From the NCBI GenBank assembly GCA_965209055.1, contig OZ242374.1:1120001-1184000 (forward strand): 64,000 bases of DNA, in the 5' to 3' direction. The translations under genes and the position numbers were made by a program. Below, piece after piece: positions 25,058 through 53,323 of the stretch; positions within the stretch are counted from its first letter, which is position 1; the number at the start of each line of letters is the position of its first letter. Source of the stretch: Acidobacteriota bacterium (GTDB lineage Bacteria; Acidobacteriota; UBA6911; RPQK01; JAJDTT01). The notes below the pieces were generated by a model, which worked only from the letters and a program-made list of their open reading frames with translations, did no database searches and had not been told where the DNA came from.

Positions 25058-26246
25058 GGAAGGTCTGATTAAGTCGAGTCAGCGTTCTGCACGATAATTC
25101 TTCCATCATCACTGCATGGAGGATAGATGATGTCGCAACGAACGTTCGCAGATCTGGAATACGACGGCAAGAAGCGGGTGACCCGTCGGGAGAGATTTCT
25201 GGCCCGGATGGACCGGTTGATTCCATGGGAGCAGTTGGAAGCCCGGATTCGGCCCGTTTACCCGAAAGCGGGACGGGGACGGCGTCCCTACCCGCTCTCG
25301 ACGATGCTTCGGATCCACTGCGTGCAGCTGTTTTACAACCTGAGCGATCCGGGGATGGAGGATCTGCTCTATGAGGTGGAGTCGGTGCGGCGGTTCGTGG
25401 GCCTGAAGCTCACGGGGCCGCTGCCGGACGAGACGACGATTCTGAAATTCCGTCATCGGCTGGAGGAGCATGGTCTGGGGGAGGCGCTGTTCGAGGAGAT
25501 CGGTTCTCACCTGCAGCGGCAAGGCCTGCGGCTGAGCCGGGGGACGATCGTGGACGCGAGTATCCTGGCGGCGCCTTCCTCGACCAAGAACAGGGAGGGG
25601 GCGCGGGACCCGGAGATGCATCAGACGAAGAAGGGAAAACAGTGGTATTTCGGAATGAAGGCCCACCTGGGGGTGGACGCCCAGACGGGGGTGGCGCACA
25701 CGGTGGTGACGGCGCCGGCTAACGAGCATGACGTGACGCGAGCCGGTGAGTTGCTGCACGGCTCGGAGTCTCAAGTTTGGGGGGATTCGGGATACCAGGG
25801 AGTGGGAAAGCGGTCGGAGAATCGAGATCGGCCGGTGGATTGGCAGGTGATGATGAAGCCGGGGAAGCGTTGGCGGCTGCCACCGGAGAGTGAGGCGGCG
25901 TTGGCCGAGCGGCGCAAAGCGTCGGTTCGGGCCAAGGCAGAACATGTATTCGGGTACCTGAAACGGCATTTCGGCTACGCGAAGGTGCGCTACCGGGGGC
26001 TGGCGAAAAACACCCAACGGATCTATTTGCTGGTGGGGTTCGCCAATCTGATGATCGCCGAGCGCTCTGGCGTGAACGCCTGATCCGGGCGCGGGAGAGG
26101 TGCGTCGAGATTCGGGGAATCAGTCTGAGAATGGGGGCACCCAGAGCCTTGCCAGGGTGGTACTCCTCATAATGAAGGTTTGGACACCGCAAAGCCGAAA
26201 CAATAACGGCTCTCACGTCCCTTGAATCGACTTGTTCAGACCTTCC
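25058..26246 (+). mobile_element. IS5-family element (copy 1)
   Basis: TIRs GGAAGGTCTGATTAAGTC / GACTTGTTCAGACCTTCC; CTAG target duplication. Confidence 0.95.
25127..26083 (+). CDS. IS5-family DDE transposase
   Basis: PDETTILKFR, TIVDAS, WYFGMKAH and GDSGYQG motifs. Confidence 0.95.
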   Translation: MMSQRTFADLEYDGKKRVTRRERFLARMDRLIPWEQLEARIRPVYPKAGRGRRPYPLSTMLRIHCVQLFYNLSDPGMEDLLYEVESVRRFVGLKLTGPLPDETTILKFRHRLEEHGLGEALFEEIGSHLQRQGLRLSRGTIVDASILAAPSSTKNREGARDPEMHQTKKGKQWYFGMKAHLGVDAQTGVAHTVVTAPANEHDVTRAGELLHGSESQVWGDSGYQGVGKRSENRDRPVDWQVMMKPGKRWRLPPESEAALAERRKASVRAKAEHVFGYLKRHFGYAKVRYRGLAKNTQRIYLLVGFANLMIAERSGVNA

Positions 26247-44495: not shown

Positions 44496-47400
44496 CTATC
44501 GACTCCAATCCTCCTCCGCCGGAATCCCGCGACTCGTCAGCACTTCCATTCCCGGCTCCACCGCCAACGCGGACACGGCATCGACCCCGCTCCCGTCCCC
44601 TGCCGCCGGACCCCGAAAAATCCCCCGGATCTCCCCTGTCCGCGGATCCCGCAGGATGCTCACCGGCCGGTCGGTCTCCTCATCCAACCTGGCCGACCCT
44701 CCCGGCCCCGACAGCGTGATGCCGGCCAACTCGCCGGCCCATCCGGCCCGGACGGGCAGAACAAACGCGAACGACGACCTCCCGTCCCCGTCGGCCAGCT
44801 CCGGCATGGCGAAGCTCAACGAAAACAACTCCTCCCCGTCCCCATCCTTCCCCGTAATCTCATACTCCCCGCCGGACCGCGGAAGCCGCGCCGGAGCATC
44901 CACCACGAACGCCGGCTCCAGGTACGGAGTCCCGTCGGACCCGACGCCGCCCCAAAGCAGGAGGCTCTTCGCCGGCGCCGCCACCAGCGCGGACCCCTCG
45001 GCGCTGCCTGCGGCGTACAAGCGGTAACGGAGCGCGTTGGTGAAGTGATAAGCGCCGATCCACTGGGCCTCGGTGCGGCAGTAGGCCATCAGATCCGGCC
45101 AGACCGGCGGAAACACCCGCCCAGGCTCGATGAGATCGTATCCCCAGTCGCCGATGGAACCGTCCATCTGCGGAAACGCCGGATCCAGCGCGGCCGGCGC
45201 GCCGCAGGGCGCATGGGCCAGGCTCAAGTTGTGGCCCAGCTCATGCGCCATGATCACCGGATGGGGTATGGAGAAACTGATCAGGCCGGGTCGTTGGCCC
45301 AAACCGGCGAGACCACCGGTGAACTCGCCTCCAATCGTGCCCATGTAGTACCCACCAGCCCCTTCCATGGCATGGATGATTGCGGTTTCGCCGAACAGCG
45401 ACACGGGGTCGTTGGTCGAGGTCGACACGGGCGCATGGGCCTTGACGTCGAGTTCCTTGATGGGCAGCAGCGCCCGTGTCTCCTTGAGCAGGGGATGGCC
45501 CCCGGGGTCACGGGCCATGCCTTCGGCCAATTCCACGATCGACGAATCCGGATTCTCATCCCATAGGAATGGAATCACGGTCAGATCGAAGACCGGCATC
45601 GTCCGGACGTCGACCGCCAGGCGGCCGCTCTCCGGGATCCGCTTCGTCACGCCCGCATCGGGACCCGGCGTTCCCTCCGGGTCGACGTCGATCACCATCT
45701 CCAATCCCGGTTGCACCACCGAACCGGGCACCAGAACGTTGGCGGAGGCGTTCAGATCCCCTTTGTAAAACTCTCCCGGTATCGGAACCGGCTTCCCCGG
45801 AATGTCCACCACGTGCGTCATCGTCCCGTTCCGATAAAAAGTGGCCCGGACCGGAGGGAGATCCGACCCGGTCCCGCGGTCCGGTTCCACGAACACCCGG
45901 AGCAGGGCTTCCTCTCCCGCCACCAGCGGCACCGGGAATTCTCGCGACTGGACGGCCTGAGTCAGGATCACGTCCGGCGGATCGCCGGCGCCGCAGATCC
46001 CGATCCGCCGTTTCCAGACGCCGGACAGCCAATCCTGAAACCCGGCGTCCGAAGGCGCGCAGAGGTTCGCGCCGTGGGCCAGAAGTTCCTCCAGCCGGCC
46101 CAGATCCGTCAGCCGGGCGGGCAACGCTCCGGTCATCCCGCCGTTATTCGAGAGCACGATGCTGCGCAAACTCTCCAAGCCACCGAATTCCGGCGGCACG
46201 GCGCCCGTCAGTTCATTGTCCTGCATCCGAAGGAACTCCAGCCTGGTCAGTCTCCCCAGTTCCGGCGGGACGGCGCCCGTCAGGGCGTTCCCTTCGAACC
46301 ACAGCCCTTCCAGGTTCTCGAGGGCGCCCAGTTCCGGCGGGATGGAGCCGGTCAGATCATTCCAGGCGAGGTCCAGCGTCTTCAGGCTGGCGAGCGACCC
46401 CAACACCGCCGGGATCGTTCCCGTCAAGCCGTTGGCCCGGAGCCACAGGCTCTCCAGGTTGGCGAGTGCGCCGAGTTCCGGGGGAATCGGGCCGGACAGG
46501 GAGTTTCCCCTGATCCACAAATTCCTCAAGTTCGTGAGCGAGCCCAACTCCGGCGGGATGGAGCCGGTCAGGCCGTTCCCGTCCAGGTTCAGGTCCGTCA
46601 GGTTGGCGAGCGACCCCAACTCTGCCGGGATCCCTCCCGTCAACATGTTGCCGAAGAGCCGCGACGTCTCCAGGTTGGAGAGTGCGCCCAGTTCCGGCGG
46701 GATCGGCCCGGTCAGCCGGTTGTAGTTGAGGTTCAGGTGGATGAGCTCGGCGAGCGAGCCGAGTTCCGGCGGGATGGGACCCGTCAAGGCATTGTAGCCG
46801 AGATTCAGATCCGTCAAGCGGGTGAGCGAGACCAGCTCCACCGGGATCGTTCCCGTCAAGTTGTTGTTCGAGAGATACAACGTAACCACGCGCCCGTCGT
46901 CGTCGACTCCGACGCGGCGCCATTCCTCCAGGGGACGGTCCGTCATCCAGTTATCCCGCTCGGTCCAGTGCGGACCCCCGGTCGCATCGAACAGCACCGA
47001 CAGGATTTCCCGGTCCGACGGAGGCGGACAATCCGTGCCTGTCCCCTCGTGAGACGGTATGCCGCTCATCCACGCCCGGAACGATTCCCCGGCCGGGACA
47101 CAGAGATCGGTGTCCGCGTAGTGGAAGTCCTGAAGCGAAGTGAGTGAAGACAGGGACATGGGCAGGCGGCCGGAGAGGGCGTTGCCGCCGATCCTCAGCT
47201 CGGTCATCTGCCGCAAACTCCCCAAGTTGCCGGGAACCCGCCCCTCCAGTCCGTTGCCGGCCAGGTCGAGCGCCGTGACCCGGCCCTGGGAATCGACGCT
47301 GACGCCGTGCCATTCTCCCAACGTTCCTTCTCCGCGCCACCCGTCCGAGTTCGTCCAGTCCGGGCCGCCGGTGATTTCGAAGAACGCCTCCAGCACCGCC

Positions 47401-50330
47401 CTGTCCGACTCGTTGCAGTACGCCCTGCCGTGAAGCACCTCGATTTCGCTCGACCAAGCCGTGAAATCGGGGCTTCCGGGTATGCAGAGACCTGCGTTCC
47501 TTTCAATCCGGAACTCCTCCAGGTCCATCGCCAAGAGGCTTTCCGGCAGCGGTCCGGTCAGGCGGTTCCAGTCCAGAAACAGGAACCGCAGTCCGGCAGC
47601 CGACCCCAGTTCAGTTGGAACCGGTCCGGTCAGGCGGTTGAGGCGTAGAGACAAGTTCCACAGCTTGGCCAGCGCACCGAGTTCGGGCGGGATCGCATCC
47701 GTCAACTGATTGCGGGAAAGCCACAAATGCTCCAATTCGGCGAGCGAGCCCAATTCCGGCGGGATCGAGCCCGTCAGTCTGTTGCGGTCGAGTCTGAGGG
47801 TATTCAAGTTGGCGAGATCGCCCAGTTGAGGCGGAATCGAACCCACCAGAAAATTGTTCTGGAGCGACAATTGCTCCAGTTTGGCGAGAGCGCCCATGCC
47901 TGGCGGGACGGGACCGGTGAGGGCGTTGTCGCTCAGGTCGAGGGTCCTCAAGTTTGAAAGTGAATTCAGCTTCACCGGAATCGGGCCGGTGAGGAAGTTG
48001 CTCTGCAGGCTGAAAGACGTCGCCTCGGCCAGTGAACCGAGTTCGGGCGGGATCGGCCCCGTCAGGTTGTTTCCATTCAGACCGAGGCTCGTCAGGTTGC
48101 CGAGGGACCCCAGTCCCGGTGGTATCCGCCCGGAGAGGTGATTGTCGTTGAGACTGAGAAGTTCCAGGTTGGCGAGCGAACCCAGGCCGGACGGGATCGG
48201 CCCCGTCAGGGCATTTCCCCCGAGCTCCAGGGTTTCCAATCTGACGAGGGACCCCAGTTGAGGCGGGATCGGCCCGGTCAACTCATTGTTCCCGAGCGCG
48301 AGAGACGTCAGGTTGACGAGCGAACCCAGTTCCGCCGGGACCGGTCCCGTCAGGGCATTGCCGCTGAGATCGAGGGTCGTCAGGTGAGTCAGGGCGCCCA
48401 GTTCCGGCGGGAACTCGCCCGCCAGCCCATTGTCCCTGAGGACCAACCGGGTGACGCGCCCCCCGGCATCGACATCCACCCCGTGCCATTCCCCGAGCGG
48501 ACGGCCGGTCCCCCAGTTCCCGCTGTCGGTCCACCCGGACCCGCCGGCGAACTCGTAGAGCGCCGTCAACGCGGCCTGCTCGGAAACCACCACCCCCACC
48601 GTGACCGACGCCGTCTGCGTCCGTCCGACGGCGTCGCGCACGGTGATCCGATACGTCGTCGTGGCCCGCGGCGACACCGGCCGCGATCCCGACGCCGGCA
48701 CCGCACCGATGTCCGGCGTGATCTCCGCACCCACCGCGTTCGTCGAAGACCAGGTCAACGTGGCGCTCTCACCCCAATCGATGGAACCCGGCGAAACCGA
48801 CAGCTTCACCGTCGGGGGAGGCGCCACGCCTCCGCTGGCCCCGTCTCCGTCCATGACCCGCACCGCCGGCACCGACGAGAGCGAATGGCTCGTCTTTCCG
48901 AACCGCAGTCCCAGTGGAGCGAATTGCGAATCGTCCTCGCTTCGAAGGAACAGCAGACCCCGAAAGTCCGCCAGGAACCCCGTATCCACTCCTTCCGCGC
49001 CGAGCCATTCCGGGAGCGTTCGCGCCAGTTGCCGAAAGTTTCCGTGGTTGATGAACACCCCCTCCAACGGGTCGTTCCCCTCTTCATCCCGAACCCGTAG
49101 CTCCACGGTCGAAGCGGCGTCCGGTTTGAAGATGGCCACTCCGGCGCCGATCGCCGGCGACTCCTCCACGAACAGGGCGAACTGGCTTCCCAGCTCCACC
49201 GGTTGCACGCTCACCTCAACACCCGTCCCGGCCTGCCGGTAGGTCAACAACCCGCTGACCGCCGCCGACTCGGACTCCACCTCGATCCAGCCCCGCCGGA
49301 TCGCCCCGGCGCCGGCGCTCTTCAGCACCCGGCTGCCCAACGACGGAATCAGGAACGCCGGTTCCACATCGAACAGATCCCGGACCGGCCGGCCCTCCTC
49401 GTCGAAGACTTCCACGATCACCGACGCAGAGGCTTCCGCGGCGATGTTGCTGAGCGCCAACTGCACCGACCAGCCGCTTCCGTCCACGTAGTCCGGAAAG
49501 TAAAGGGTCGTCTCCGTCGGTTCCTGCGCCTCGTCCCGGATCGCCGGCACCGACGAGAGTGATTGGTTCCGCTTTCCGAACCGCAGCCCCAGCGGAGCAA
49601 ATCTCGACTCGTCCTCGCCACTCAGGAACAAAAGACCCCGGAAGTCCCTCAGGGATTCCCGGTCGATCCCCTCCACGTCGAACCATTCGGGCAGCGTGCG
49701 CGCCAACTGGTGAAAGTTCCCGTGGGACACGATCCCCCCGTCCAGCGGGTTGTTCCCCTCTTCGTCCCGGACCCGGAACTGGATGCTCGACGACGCCTCC
49801 GGTTTGAAGACCGCCACTCCCGCTCCGACTTCGTCCGTCTCCTCCACGAACAGCGCGAAACGCCCGCCCAGCCCGGCCGGCTCCACGCTCACCTCGATCC
49901 CCGTCGTTCCCTCCTTGTAGGTCAACAGTCCGCTGACCGAGTCCGCACGGGCGCGGACCTGGATCCAGCCGCGCCGAATCTCCCCCGCGCCCGAGCTCCT
50001 CAAAACCCAGCTGCCCAAGGCGGGAATCTCGAAAGTCAAACCCGACTCGAACAGATCCGGTACGGGCCGGCCCTCCTCGTCGTAGACCTCAACCACAACC
50101 TCGGCTCCCGCATCCGGATCGACATTGCTGAGCGCCAACTGCACCGACCATCCGCCACCGTCCACATAGTCGGGAAAGTAGAGAACCGTCTCCTCCGCTT
50201 CCTGATTCTGATTCCGGATCGTCTCCCGGACTTGGAGTTGGGCCTTCTCCGGCCCCTCGGCAGGCGACTGACTCGAAAACGAGGCCGCTAAAAACAAAAA
50301 GGCAAACAACGGAACCAAAATCTTCCTCAT
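44496..50330 (-). CDS. Large secreted protein: two N-terminal repeat domains, LRR blocks and a zinc metallopeptidase (M66-like) domain
   Basis: Two LYFPDYVDG.GWSVQLALSN domains, many LxLxxNxLTGxIPxELG repeats, HELGHNLSLAH zincin motif. Confidence 0.85.
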   Translation of the reverse strand: MRKILVPLFAFLFLAASFSSQSPAEGPEKAQLQVRETIRNQNQEAEETVLYFPDYVDGGGWSVQLALSNVDPDAGAEVVVEVYDEEGRPVPDLFESGLTFEIPALGSWVLRSSGAGEIRRGWIQVRARADSVSGLLTYKEGTTGIEVSVEPAGLGGRFALFVEETDEVGAGVAVFKPEASSSIQFRVRDEEGNNPLDGGIVSHGNFHQLARTLPEWFDVEGIDRESLRDFRGLLFLSGEDESRFAPLGLRFGKRNQSLSSVPAIRDEAQEPTETTLYFPDYVDGSGWSVQLALSNIAAEASASVIVEVFDEEGRPVRDLFDVEPAFLIPSLGSRVLKSAGAGAIRRGWIEVESESAAVSGLLTYRQAGTGVEVSVQPVELGSQFALFVEESPAIGAGVAIFKPDAASTVELRVRDEEGNDPLEGVFINHGNFRQLARTLPEWLGAEGVDTGFLADFRGLLFLRSEDDSQFAPLGLRFGKTSHSLSSVPAVRVMDGDGASGGVAPPPTVKLSVSPGSIDWGESATLTWSSTNAVGAEITPDIGAVPASGSRPVSPRATTTYRITVRDAVGRTQTASVTVGVVVSEQAALTALYEFAGGSGWTDSGNWGTGRPLGEWHGVDVDAGGRVTRLVLRDNGLAGEFPPELGALTHLTTLDLSGNALTGPVPAELGSLVNLTSLALGNNELTGPIPPQLGSLVRLETLELGGNALTGPIPSGLGSLANLELLSLNDNHLSGRIPPGLGSLGNLTSLGLNGNNLTGPIPPELGSLAEATSFSLQSNFLTGPIPVKLNSLSNLRTLDLSDNALTGPVPPGMGALAKLEQLSLQNNFLVGSIPPQLGDLANLNTLRLDRNRLTGSIPPELGSLAELEHLWLSRNQLTDAIPPELGALAKLWNLSLRLNRLTGPVPTELGSAAGLRFLFLDWNRLTGPLPESLLAMDLEEFRIERNAGLCIPGSPDFTAWSSEIEVLHGRAYCNESDRAVLEAFFEITGGPDWTNSDGWRGEGTLGEWHGVSVDSQGRVTALDLAGNGLEGRVPGNLGSLRQMTELRIGGNALSGRLPMSLSSLTSLQDFHYADTDLCVPAGESFRAWMSGIPSHEGTGTDCPPPSDREILSVLFDATGGPHWTERDNWMTDRPLEEWRRVGVDDDGRVVTLYLSNNNLTGTIPVELVSLTRLTDLNLGYNALTGPIPPELGSLAELIHLNLNYNRLTGPIPPELGALSNLETSRLFGNMLTGGIPAELGSLANLTDLNLDGNGLTGSIPPELGSLTNLRNLWIRGNSLSGPIPPELGALANLESLWLRANGLTGTIPAVLGSLASLKTLDLAWNDLTGSIPPELGALENLEGLWFEGNALTGAVPPELGRLTRLEFLRMQDNELTGAVPPEFGGLESLRSIVLSNNGGMTGALPARLTDLGRLEELLAHGANLCAPSDAGFQDWLSGVWKRRIGICGAGDPPDVILTQAVQSREFPVPLVAGEEALLRVFVEPDRGTGSDLPPVRATFYRNGTMTHVVDIPGKPVPIPGEFYKGDLNASANVLVPGSVVQPGLEMVIDVDPEGTPGPDAGVTKRIPESGRLAVDVRTMPVFDLTVIPFLWDENPDSSIVELAEGMARDPGGHPLLKETRALLPIKELDVKAHAPVSTSTNDPVSLFGETAIIHAMEGAGGYYMGTIGGEFTGGLAGLGQRPGLISFSIPHPVIMAHELGHNLSLAHAPCGAPAALDPAFPQMDGSIGDWGYDLIEPGRVFPPVWPDLMAYCRTEAQWIGAYHFTNALRYRLYAAGSAEGSALVAAPAKSLLLWGGVGSDGTPYLEPAFVVDAPARLPRSGGEYEITGKDGDGEELFSLSFAMPELADGDGRSSFAFVLPVRAGWAGELAGITLSGPGGSARLDEETDRPVSILRDPRTGEIRGIFRGPAAGDGSGVDAVSALAVEPGMEVLTSRGIPAEEDWSR

Positions 50331-50676
50331 TTCAATACTCTCGACATCAAGACTCTCCCCTGGGAGTATCCATGTTGCAAGGGGTGGGTTCTCATCGGTG
50401 ATTCCATCCCGGGTCGTTAGTCAGTGAGGTGTCCGGTTTCCTGTTGGCATGTGATCTGTCCGGTTCACTGGGCGCGGATACGCCCTGGGGAGCCTCGGGT
50501 CAAGCCTACGGCTCCTCCGCTTCGCTGCGGCCCTTCGGGTGACCCGACGCTCCCCAGGGCGTGAAGAGCTTTCAAGGCCGTAAGCAAGCTTCCGGCCAGG
50601 CCTGACCGGAAGTTCTACAGATCATTCCTCGGGGGACCCGTCACGCCCCCTTTCCTCCTCATCTCGCTCCGTCGCT

Positions 50677-51624
50677 TCAGCAGACCACACGGGGCGCTTC
50701 GGGCAACCAGGTGCGGTCCTGACTCACCAGGGTGTTGGCTAGGACGATGAGCTTGCGCATGACGGCGACCAGGGCCACCTTGCCGGGCTTGCCACGCCCG
50801 GTCAGTCTCCCATAGACCTCGGCCAGGTCGCGGTTCCAGCGCAGGGCGGCCACCGCCGGCATGTACAGGAGCCGTCGCGCCCGCGCTCGTCCGCCCCGGA
50901 TGAAGGCCCGTCCCTGCCAAGCCCCCGACTCGCGAGGAACGGCGGCCAACCCGGCCAGACTGGCGACGGCCTTACCGCTCAGGGTGCCCAGCTCCGGCAT
51001 CTCGGCCAGTAGACCCGCGGCGGTGGTGGCCGCGATCCCGGGAATGGAGGTCAGGATCTCCCACTTGCGCGCCCGCTCCGGATCGGCCGCGATCAGTTGC
51101 TGTATTTTTCGGTCAATGGCCTTCGCCTGGCGCTCGAACAGGTTGATCTGGGTCTGGTTCTGCCGCTTGGGCAGGGGATCGCGCAAATGGGCGCGGCGGT
51201 TCAGCGCGGCCGTGCGCTGGCGCATCAGCGCGTCCCGGCACCCCTGCAGTTCCTGGAGCCGGCGTTGCGTCTTGGACGGCGCCGGGGTCCGGCGCGGATC
51301 CAGGCTGGCCCCCATCTGGGCCAGCATCCGGGCGTCTACGGTGTCGGTCTTCGCGCGGCTCCCGGTCGCCTGAGCAAAACACCGGGCCTGCCAGGGATTC
51401 ACTCTCGACAGCGGCAGCTTCGCTTTCCACAGCGCTTCCTCGAGGTTCCGGTGATAGGGGCCGGTGGCCTCGTAGGCGACGCACTCGACCGGAGTTCCGA
51501 TCCAATCGATCAGCGCCCGGAAGCCGGCCGGGTCATTGTCGAACCGGGCGGATCGGCCGTCGGCCAGCCGGTGGGCGTCCAGGTGCGCTTTCGAGATGTC
51601 GATGCCTACGGTATGCTGTTTCAT
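50677..51624 (-). CDS. IS110 DEDD recombinase/transposase
   Basis: GIDISK, YEATG, KTDTVD, SIPGI and RESG motifs. Confidence 0.95.
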   Translation of the reverse strand: MKQHTVGIDISKAHLDAHRLADGRSARFDNDPAGFRALIDWIGTPVECVAYEATGPYHRNLEEALWKAKLPLSRVNPWQARCFAQATGSRAKTDTVDARMLAQMGASLDPRRTPAPSKTQRRLQELQGCRDALMRQRTAALNRRAHLRDPLPKRQNQTQINLFERQAKAIDRKIQQLIAADPERARKWEILTSIPGIAATTAAGLLAEMPELGTLSGKAVASLAGLAAVPRESGAWQGRAFIRGGRARARRLLYMPAVAALRWNRDLAEVYGRLTGRGKPGKVALVAVMRKLIVLANTLVSQDRTWLPEAPRVVC

Positions 51625-51726
51625 CTTTCCGGTCTCCTATGCTTGTCATTCGGGCCTTGATGCCCTCGTATCCATTCAGGACATCGGGAAAGACGGTGGC
51701 CGACCTTACTCCACATCCGGATCTAA

Positions 51727-52915
51727 GGAAGGTCTGATTAAGTCGAGTCAGCGTTCTGCACGATAATTCTTCCATCATCACTGCATGGAGGATAGATGAT
51801 GTCGCAACGAACGTTCGCAGATCTGGAATACGACGGCAAGAAGCGGGTGACCCGTCGGGAGAGATTTCTGGCCCGGATGGACCGGTTGATTCCATGGGAG
51901 CAGTTGGAAGCCCGGATTCGGCCCGTTTACCCGAAAGCGGGACGGGGACGGCGTCCCTACCCGCTCTCGACGATGCTTCGGATCCACTGCGTGCAGCTGT
52001 TTTACAACCTGAGCGATCCGGGGATGGAGGATCTGCTCTATGAGGTGGAGTCGGTGCGGCGGTTCGTGGGCCTGAAGCTCACGGGGCCGCTGCCGGACGA
52101 GACGACGATTCTGAAATTCCGTCATCGGCTGGAGGAGCATGGTCTGGGGGAGGCGCTGTTCGAGGAGATCGGTTCTCACCTGCAGCGGCAAGGCCTGCGG
52201 CTGAGCCGGGGGACGATCGTGGACGCGAGTATCCTGGCGGCGCCTTCCTCGACCAAGAACAGGGAGGGGGCGCGGGACCCGGAGATGCATCAGACGAAGA
52301 AGGGAAAACAGTGGTATTTCGGAATGAAGGCCCACCTGGGGGTGGACGCCCAGACGGGGGTGGCGCACACGGTGGTGACGGCGCCGGCTAACGAGCATGA
52401 CGTGACGCGAGCCGGTGAGTTGCTGCACGGCTCGGAGTCTCAAGTTTGGGGGGATTCGGGATACCAGGGAGTGGGAAAGCGGTCGGAGAATCGAGATCGG
52501 CCGGTGGATTGGCAGGTGATGATGAAGCCGGGGAAGCGTTGGCGGCTGCCACCGGAGAGTGAGGCGGCGTTGGCCGAGCGGCGCAAAGCGTCGGTTCGGG
52601 CCAAGGCAGAACATGTATTCGGGTACCTGAAACGGCATTTCGGCTACGCGAAGGTGCGCTACCGGGGGCTGGCGAAAAACACCCAACGGATCTATTTGCT
52701 GGTGGGGTTCGCCAATCTGATGATCGCCGAGCGCTCTGGCGTGAACGCCTGATCCGGGCGCGGGAGAGGTGCGTCGAGATTCGGGGAATCAGTCTGAGAA
52801 TGGGGGCACCCAGAGCCTTGCCAGGGTGGTACTCCTCATAATGAAGGTTTGGACACCGCAAAGCCGAAACAATAACGGCTCTCACGTCCCTTGAATCGAC
52901 TTGTTCAGACCTTCC
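51727..52915 (+). mobile_element. IS5-family element (copy 2)
   Basis: Same TIRs and length (1189 bp) as copy 1, identical protein; CTAA target duplication. Confidence 0.95.
51796..52752 (+). CDS. IS5-family DDE transposase
   Basis: Identical protein to 25127-26083. Confidence 0.95.
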   Translation: MMSQRTFADLEYDGKKRVTRRERFLARMDRLIPWEQLEARIRPVYPKAGRGRRPYPLSTMLRIHCVQLFYNLSDPGMEDLLYEVESVRRFVGLKLTGPLPDETTILKFRHRLEEHGLGEALFEEIGSHLQRQGLRLSRGTIVDASILAAPSSTKNREGARDPEMHQTKKGKQWYFGMKAHLGVDAQTGVAHTVVTAPANEHDVTRAGELLHGSESQVWGDSGYQGVGKRSENRDRPVDWQVMMKPGKRWRLPPESEAALAERRKASVRAKAEHVFGYLKRHFGYAKVRYRGLAKNTQRIYLLVGFANLMIAERSGVNA

Positions 52916-53323
52916 CTAACGGTCAGCGGCGACACGGTCCAGCCACCGCCGCCCGGGCCGCTCATGAGCGGCCCGGGCGGACTTATTTAAACAGACAAGC
53001 GGCGACTTTCCTGTCGCCAGGGGAGCGAAGCGACCCCATCCCGCCAATTTTTCCGTCGCCGACCGCGAGAGTCCGCGAGGGAACATTCCAACCCCTCCTC
53101 TTCAACACCGCCCCCGCTCCCAACATTTTTCTTCGTTACTTTTTCTTCTTCCCCGTTATGGAATGGGTAGAGTTCACGAAACCAGCTCATGACGACCGCG
53201 ACGAGAGGCTCGACCGCGAACACCCCTGAACCCTTTCCGCATTCCGTCGTCCGGTCTCCGGAACTCCGAAGAGGTTCCCCGCCGGGACAGGAACCGATAT
53301 AATTCCAACTCTGGGAAAAACAG

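Follow-up and report, generated by a model that had tools for sequence, protein, structure and literature searches.

RNA guidance has been shown for IS621, an IS110-group insertion sequence of Escherichia coli, and for ISCro4 (PMC11208160). In IS621, the 5' guides of the bridge RNA copy the top strand of the DNA and the 3' guides complement it, and a promoter is formed at the junction of the joined element ends (PMC11208160). The two loops of this RNA occupy nt 34-98 and 110-177 (65 and 68 nt), the handshake rule has position 7 of the non-cognate DNA pair with the base that follows each right guide on its 3' side, and catalytic roles are assigned to residues D11, E60, D102, D105, and S241 (PMC11208158). 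For 85.7% of IS110-group elements a bridge RNA was predicted by Durrant et al. 2024 (PMC11208160), who also named repetitive extragenic palindromes (REPs) as typical targets and used thousands of natural guide-target pairs. The present report concerns positions 50365-52999 of the window, a stretch of 64,000 nucleotides (positions 1,120,001 to 1,184,000, forward strand) from contig OZ242374.1, the single 6.08-Mb contig (62.8% G+C) that makes up the genome of a sponge-associated Acidobacteriota bacterium. As judged from its sequence, this interval is very probably an IS110-group element that moves by bridge-RNA-guided recombination like IS621. A predicted bridge RNA whose bipartite target and donor loops are built on a CT core, and whose target is a REP-like hairpin foot, is supported by its fold, by matches between guides and flanks in three copies, by covariation among relatives, by the handshake bases, by the catalytic residues of the recombinase, and by a promoter-like motif at the joined ends.

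The ends of the element are defined by three copies with different flanks; in each copy the body begins TGTCTG and finishes ATGGATA, and the sequences beyond differ. The features of the locus are as follows.

50365-52999, minus strand: putative bridge-RNA-guided IS110-group element, including both CT core copies and a nested IS5-family element
53001-53018, minus strand: REP-like hairpin GGCGAC-AGGAAA-GTCGCC; the left target (53006-53000) consists of its 3' arm and one further G
Left junction, minus strand: GTCGCCG (53006-53000), CT (52999-52998), TGTC (52997-52994)
52998-52999, minus strand: left core copy CT
52985-52990, minus strand: -10-like TTAAAT in the left end, a weak match without A at position 2
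52950-52979, minus strand: predicted bridge RNA 5' stem-loop of 13 pairs (RNAalifold)
52920-52949, minus strand: predicted target-binding loop, 5' half, with outer stem strand, left target guide GTCGCCGCT (52933-52925), and start of the distal loop
51727-52915, plus strand: IS5-family insertion sequence, with its transposase open reading frame at 51796-52752 (Pfam, NCBIfam)
51693-51726, minus strand: predicted target-binding loop, 3' half, with right target guide GGAG (51712-51709), handshake UA (51708-51707), and outer stem strand
52950-52936 and 51705-51692, minus strand: predicted target-loop stem strands, GGCGGTGGCTGGACC and GGTCGGCCACCGTC, respectively
51625-51692, minus strand: predicted donor-binding loop, with ATGGATAC (51675-51668), GACAAG (51647-51642), and handshake C (51641)
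50677-51624, minus strand: intact recombinase gene, 315 aa (PF01548, PF02371, NF033542, and the IS621 and ISCro4 structures)
50367-50676, minus strand: right non-coding end, 310 nt, with left donor ATGGATA (50373-50367), -35-like TTGCAA (50380-50375), and a long inverted repeat
50365-50366, minus strand: right core copy CT, followed by the right target CCCA (50364-50361)
Right junction, minus strand: ATGGATA (50373-50367), CT (50366-50365), CCCA (50364-50361)

The IS5-family element is 1189 bp long, has inverted ends, and encodes a transposase that matches PF01609 and PF05598 (Pfam) and NF033581 (NCBIfam). It interrupts the left non-coding end of the IS110 element and is bordered on both sides by a 4-nt duplication, TTAG (52919-52916 and 51726-51723). 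The insertion site is the distal loop of the target-binding loop, and because IS5 thus separates the left target guide from the right one, the window copy is unable to make its own bridge RNA. Since the bridge RNA gene is split, this copy would be movable only with RNA from the two further copies in the same genome, L002 and L003, both of which lack IS5. In a first-pass annotation, made by a model from the letters of the window and a list of its open reading frames, the left end had been rebuilt by removing IS5, and this reconstruction is what the genome holds: the left ends of L002 and L003 are uninterrupted and contain CTGACCGTTAGATCCGGATG as foreseen, and the joint 51722-to-52916 of the IS5-free left end is present in contigs of three public runs (X1, X5, and X8). 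The positions given there for the stems and for the four short guide words were likewise all correct, when read on the minus strand.

An RNAalifold consensus of 17 left ends (two from the host genome and 15 from relatives) consists of a 13-pair 5' hairpin and two stem-loops with internal loops, of 64 and 69 nt, and the predicted bridge RNA of about 167 nt occupies the left end, immediately upstream of the gene for the recombinase. On the 5' side of the first internal loop, GTCGCCGCT equals the left target plus core in top-strand sense and matches at 9/9 in all three copies, and on the 3' side GGAG is the reverse complement of CT-CC, over 4 nt only. On the 5' side of the second internal loop, ATGGATAC equals the left donor plus core at 8/9, the second core base being unmatched, and on the 3' side GACAAG is the reverse complement of CT-TGTC over 6 nt. 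The expected handshakes are also available: in the target loop, the UA after GGAG would pair with donor positions 7 and 6 (A and T), and in the donor loop, the C after GACAAG would pair with target position 7 (G). Guides, strands, handshake, and fold all agree with the bipartite loops around a CT core that the first-pass annotation had described. As a control for chance, 200000 shuffles of the 167-nt RNA were scored for core-anchored matches of at least the observed length. The left target 9-mer was equalled in 223 shuffles and the left donor 8-mer in 260 (each about 0.1%), the right donor 6-mer in 9181, and the right target 4-mer in 157883 (79%); all four matches jointly were found in 0/200000.

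The three copies are nearly identical (99.8% over 1448 nt between L002 and L003, and about 100% over 1361 nt between the window copy and each of these), and their reading frames are all open, with 99-100% amino acid identity. Each lies in GTCGCCG-CT on the left and CT-CCC(A/G) on the right (CT-CCCA for the window copy, CT-CCCG for L002 and L003), at the 3' foot of a REP-like hairpin and with the insertion point within its GCTCC foot. The same ends and the same target in the flanks of L002 and L003 bear out the target GTCGCCG-CT-CC that had been read from the window copy. The 11-mer GTCGCCGCTCC has 62 perfect occurrences in the genome, mostly in such hairpins and often in tandem arrays. Under a strict definition of hairpin plus GCTCC foot, the genome contains 217 units (135 ACC, 36 GTC, 23 GCC, and 23 ATC), and these units are a REP-like family. 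GTC is the second commonest subtype and is used by all three copies; the commonest, ACC, is unused by the window element. Additionally, a contig of run X8, from another study, tracks the window to exactly 50366 and continues at 53049. In the X8 population, the locus is without both insertion sequences, although the joint is not an exact empty site, as its left breakpoint falls within the repeat array, 50 nt beyond the element.

The 315-aa recombinase matches PF01548 (E 1.1e-21) and PF02371 (E 9.1e-19), and scores 205 bits against a cutoff of 140 for the NCBIfam model NF033542, "IS110 family RNA-guided transposase". Over residues 3-297, HMMER matched it to the solved structures of ISCro4 (9t56; E 8.2e-38) and IS621 (8wt6; E 1.2e-36). 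Residues D9, E52, D94, D97, and S233 align to IS621 D11, E60, D102, D105, and S241, so that 5/5 catalytic residues are kept, and the element encodes a DEDD/Ser recombinase. The Shine-Dalgarno AGGAG of the gene (51638-51634) is part of the 3' strand of the donor-loop basal stem; a transcript folded as the bridge RNA would mask it, which may couple RNA folding to translation. A second, degenerate IS110-family gene is present in the genome (G000 2084638-2085542; L035/L036), read as two pieces and containing a single TGA. Its amino acid identity to the window recombinase is 39-46%, there is a faint upstream match to the bridge RNA model (22.7 bits), and its element ends were not readable.

Like IS621 (PDB 8wt6), the window element has a recombinase that combines PF01548 with PF02371 and aligns at all five catalytic residues. 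Its predicted RNA is likewise in the left end, with a 5' hairpin, a target loop, and a donor loop in that order and with loop lengths of 64 and 69 nt (65 and 68 nt in IS621). A CT core in the guides, the guide strand logic, the handshake bases, and REP-type targets are also shared. The window element differs in being a distant orthologue (HMMER E about 1e-36, residues 3-297) from an uncultured Acidobacteriota bacterium, and in its guide sequences, donor ends, and target. Its right target guide is 4 nt only, its left donor guide pairs with one core base, and its right end is longer than its left. The ISCro4 transposase (PDB 9t56) is the best-scoring solved homologue, over the same residue range, and is likened by protein alignment alone. 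Likened by description are ISPpu10 and ISPpu9, REP-inserting IS110 elements of Pseudomonas putida that also insert beside a GC-rich stem-loop of a repeated intergenic element; unlike in these, the hairpin 3' arm at the window locus is itself part of the guided left target. Elements of the IS1111 group (seekRNA, or right-end bridge RNA) belong to the same recombinase superfamily and share the RNA-guided logic (PMC11208160). In contrast to the window element, whose RNA is in the left end upstream of the gene, they have the RNA in the right end and longer subterminal inverted repeats.

If the loops guide insertion, changes in the guides are expected to be accompanied by changes in the flanks. Close relatives were found at 20 loci in four other Acidobacteriota metagenome-assembled genomes (MAGs), with proteins 81-88% identical. 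Identity among their left ends averages 93%, with nearly all of the variation lying in the target loop. Guides and left flanks combine as follows.

Guide GTCGCCGCT, flank GTCGCCGCT: L002, L003, and L023, at 9/9 (the left flank of the window copy, checked separately, is also GTCGCCGCT)
Guide GTCGCCGCT, flank GCCGCCGCT: L016, at 8/9
Guide ACCGCCGCG, flank ACCGCCGCT: 11 loci, at 8/9
Guide ACCGCCGCG, flank GCCGCCGCT: L018, at 7/9
Guide ACCGACGCG, flank ACCGACGCT, a site other than this REP hairpin: 3 loci

In several loci the right target guide likewise follows the right flank, matching it over 8 nt in L013, 7 nt in L018 and L025, and 5 nt in L022. Some loci depart from this pattern: GCAG replaces GGAG in L026 to L028, of which L026 and L027 match the right flank at the core only, and L013, L015, and L031 have no readable left end. 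The latter three were left out of the left-flank counts, as their left ends could not be fixed; the right-flank counts exclude L017, L021, and L028, whose loci contain no right-end motif. In L013 (1390-1760), L015 (1390-1765), and L031, from two other MAGs, a degenerate second module resembling a donor loop lies upstream of the complete bridge RNA, with a left guide AATGGAGAC, then remnants of a recombinase gene start, then a right-end-like TTGCAAAGCTGGAGACT. Because this arrangement is common to all three loci, the whole composite may be mobile as one unit, although no left end was found for it. The three loci with guide ACCGACGCG (L012, L029, and L030) have near-identical non-REP flanks, GAGCCGTCACCGACG-CT-CCCTAAAATAAGGGGAACAG, and this target is itself a repeated sequence.

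Beyond the close relatives, loci with 47-67% amino acid identity were found in several phyla with a protein alignment. A covariance model built from the 17 left ends matches 73/75 of these wider loci, and in 72/73 the match is directly upstream of the recombinase gene; matches are partial in L054 and L108 and weak in L035, and L107 and L037-L042 are outside the searched or matched set. In the resulting alignment (A3), compensatory changes occur in 39/46 stem pairs, including all 12 main-helix pairs of the 5' stem-loop, and 92.3% of cells are paired; the corresponding values were 71.1% after shuffling and no more than 49.4% when partners were slid. Left target matches of at least 5 nt were found for 18/49 cognate flanks versus 44/2324 non-cognate flanks, and right target matches of at least 4 nt for 37/56 versus 133/2994. 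This measure, which demands strictly contiguous matches, gives many cognate pairs a low score, in part owing to the heuristic by which ends were located. Donor loops and ends are near-invariant across the family (A[T/C]GGATA-CT-TGTC), and target loops differ widely. The handshake is similarly widespread: the target-loop base is U in 70/71 rows with letters and donor position 7 is A in 66/66, while the donor loop has C at its handshake base in 69/74, with G at target position 7 in 48/59. Despite the CT core, the last base of the left target and left donor guides is often not T (for instance, in ACCGCCGCG and ATGGATACG; A1 column 60, and A3), and the left guides of this clade often pair with the first core base only.

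Joining of the ends would place TTGCAA, from the right end, 17 nt from TTAAAT, from the left end. Across 49 distinct family junctions, a -35-like CTTGAY box is present at a fixed distance from the core in the right end (as six-letter words, 17 CTTGAT and 14 CTTGAC), together with a TATGAY-like -10 box in the left end, and these boxes are consistent with a junction promoter of the IS621 type. In metatranscriptome run X20, only pieces 90-99% alike were found, which come from relatives. One metatranscriptome contig spans the donor loop, target loop, and gene start of a relative; it shows no discrete RNA and could be DNA carry-over.

Several observations weigh against the bridge RNA interpretation. 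GGAG alone is not significant, being equalled in 79% of shuffles, and in all three copies pairing of the right target guide extends only 2 bases past the core; within the core, the left donor guide matches the first base only. The target-loop stem is present in the centroid and alignment folds and is missing from the single-sequence minimum free energy fold of the intact left end. Comparison with covariance models, which that annotation had proposed, gave no bridge RNA match, as scans of Rfam up to E 10 with the window region and with intact copy L003 returned only chance-level microRNA and small RNA matches, most of them to the long inverted repeat of the right end; a bridge RNA family for comparison is absent from Rfam. 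Alignment A3 was fitted to the covariance model and so favours its structure. The junction hexamers of the window element are weak, each with 4/6 consensus positions and the -10 without A2, and a strict sigma-70 scan of the integrated element found no promoter. The circle junction (50367 to 52997) was not listed among the contigs of four public runs, all of them Logan contigs, which cannot show absence. Finally, at 310 nt the right non-coding end exceeds the left one (180 nt) in length, the reverse of the usual IS110-group trend (PMC11208160).

By analogy with IS621 biochemistry, the element would excise as a circle in which TTGCAA and TTAAAT, joined at a spacing of 17 nt, would drive expression of the RNA. 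A recombinase tetramer holding this RNA would then pair the circle junction with the REP foot GTCGCCG-CT-CC, and strands would be exchanged at the CT core. For the window copy, mobilisation would depend on RNA from the two intact genome copies alone.

It is unlikely, although this alternative survives best, that the element has a bridge RNA by descent and is no longer active in the host genome. There are 3 copies only for 62 perfect 11-nt sites, one copy is disrupted by IS5, and no circle junction was seen in the public-run contigs. However, the near identity of L002 and L003 (99.8% over 1448 nt) and of the window copy (about 100% over 1361 nt), the three open reading frames with 99-100% amino acid identity, guides that match their sites perfectly, and the contig from another sample without the element at the window locus all argue against inactivity. 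More doubtful still is a target choice made mainly through the structure of the REP hairpin, recognised by protein or as single-stranded DNA, with the RNA match secondary. All three copies and most close relatives are indeed located 3' of a hairpin, and an ISPpu10 preprint reports that the target stem-loop adds specificity beyond pairing (10.64898/2026.03.19.712850). Yet three relatives with guide ACCGACGCG are at ACCGACG-CT, which is not this REP hairpin, and in the host genome the commonest REP type, ACC (135 units), is unused, while all three insertions are at matching GTC sites (36 strict units). It is very improbable that the left end is merely a structured leader or a set of DNA-level subterminal transposase sites, with the end and target repeats left over from past insertions (for example, as a captured REP fragment) and no RNA guidance: the sole metatranscriptome contig over the region is from a relative and may be DNA carry-over, and the Shine-Dalgarno in the donor-loop stem means that the fold could control translation, but a captured fragment leaves unexplained the reverse-complement 3' guide across the same internal loop, the handshake bases and compensatory stem changes, and the covariation of both target guides with the flanks across distinct guide-flank pairs, and the protein is clearly homologous to IS621 and ISCro4, for which RNA guidance has been shown (PMC11208160).

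Other observations concern the surroundings of the predicted bridge RNA gene. The inverted repeat in the right end, of about 83-98 nt at about 50472-50569, is the source of chance-level microRNA matches in Rfam. A partial copy with 84% identity is present elsewhere in the genome (G000 2368156-2368230), sponge metagenome runs show very high contig depth there with many loose ends at 50509 and 50543, and indels among relatives affect the part of the right end that holds it; it may be an independent small repeat embedded in the right end. Identical copies (100%) of the IS5-family element number 9 in the genome, the second one in the window being at 25058-26246, and a variant about 93.5% identical over 1028 nt has 15 genome copies; this element looks recently active. 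The start codon of a gene for a 1944-aa leucine-rich-repeat protein (44496-50330, minus strand; weak Peptidase_M66 match) is 35 nt downstream of the IS110 element end, and its native upstream region is cut off by the double insertion.

The first-pass annotation had called the guide-target pair usable as a new bridge recombinase, which goes further than the sequence evidence, and the novelty is likewise overstated. Bridge RNAs had already been predicted in 2024 for the majority of IS110 elements (PMC11208160), which makes this element a further member of the known bridge RNA family and no new kind, and it leaves knowledge of the mechanism unchanged. A literature search on IS110 together with Acidobacteriota and sponge found no paper. 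Specific to this case are the bridge RNA gene split by IS5, the two intact genome copies, and the relatives re-aimed at different REP subtypes. The case adds a fully annotated natural set of guide, target, and donor for an uncharacterised bridge recombinase of an uncultured phylum, and it shows that correct decoding of a bridge RNA by a reader without tools is possible, even through a nested insertion. The intact reference copies, together with relatives whose target loops differ, are raw material for ortholog screening and for the study of target-loop evolution. The chances are about even that the clade, which is present in Acidobacteriota, Longimicrobiales, Alphaproteobacteria, and others, keeps one donor module constant while its target loop diversifies fast, and that the 88%-identical sponge-Acidobacteriota elements re-aimed at REP subtypes GTC and ACC, and the ACCGACG guide at a non-REP repeat, form a natural retargeting series. 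If true, such a series on a constant scaffold would be a specificity panel that can be mined, and could be used to study how new guides arise in nature.

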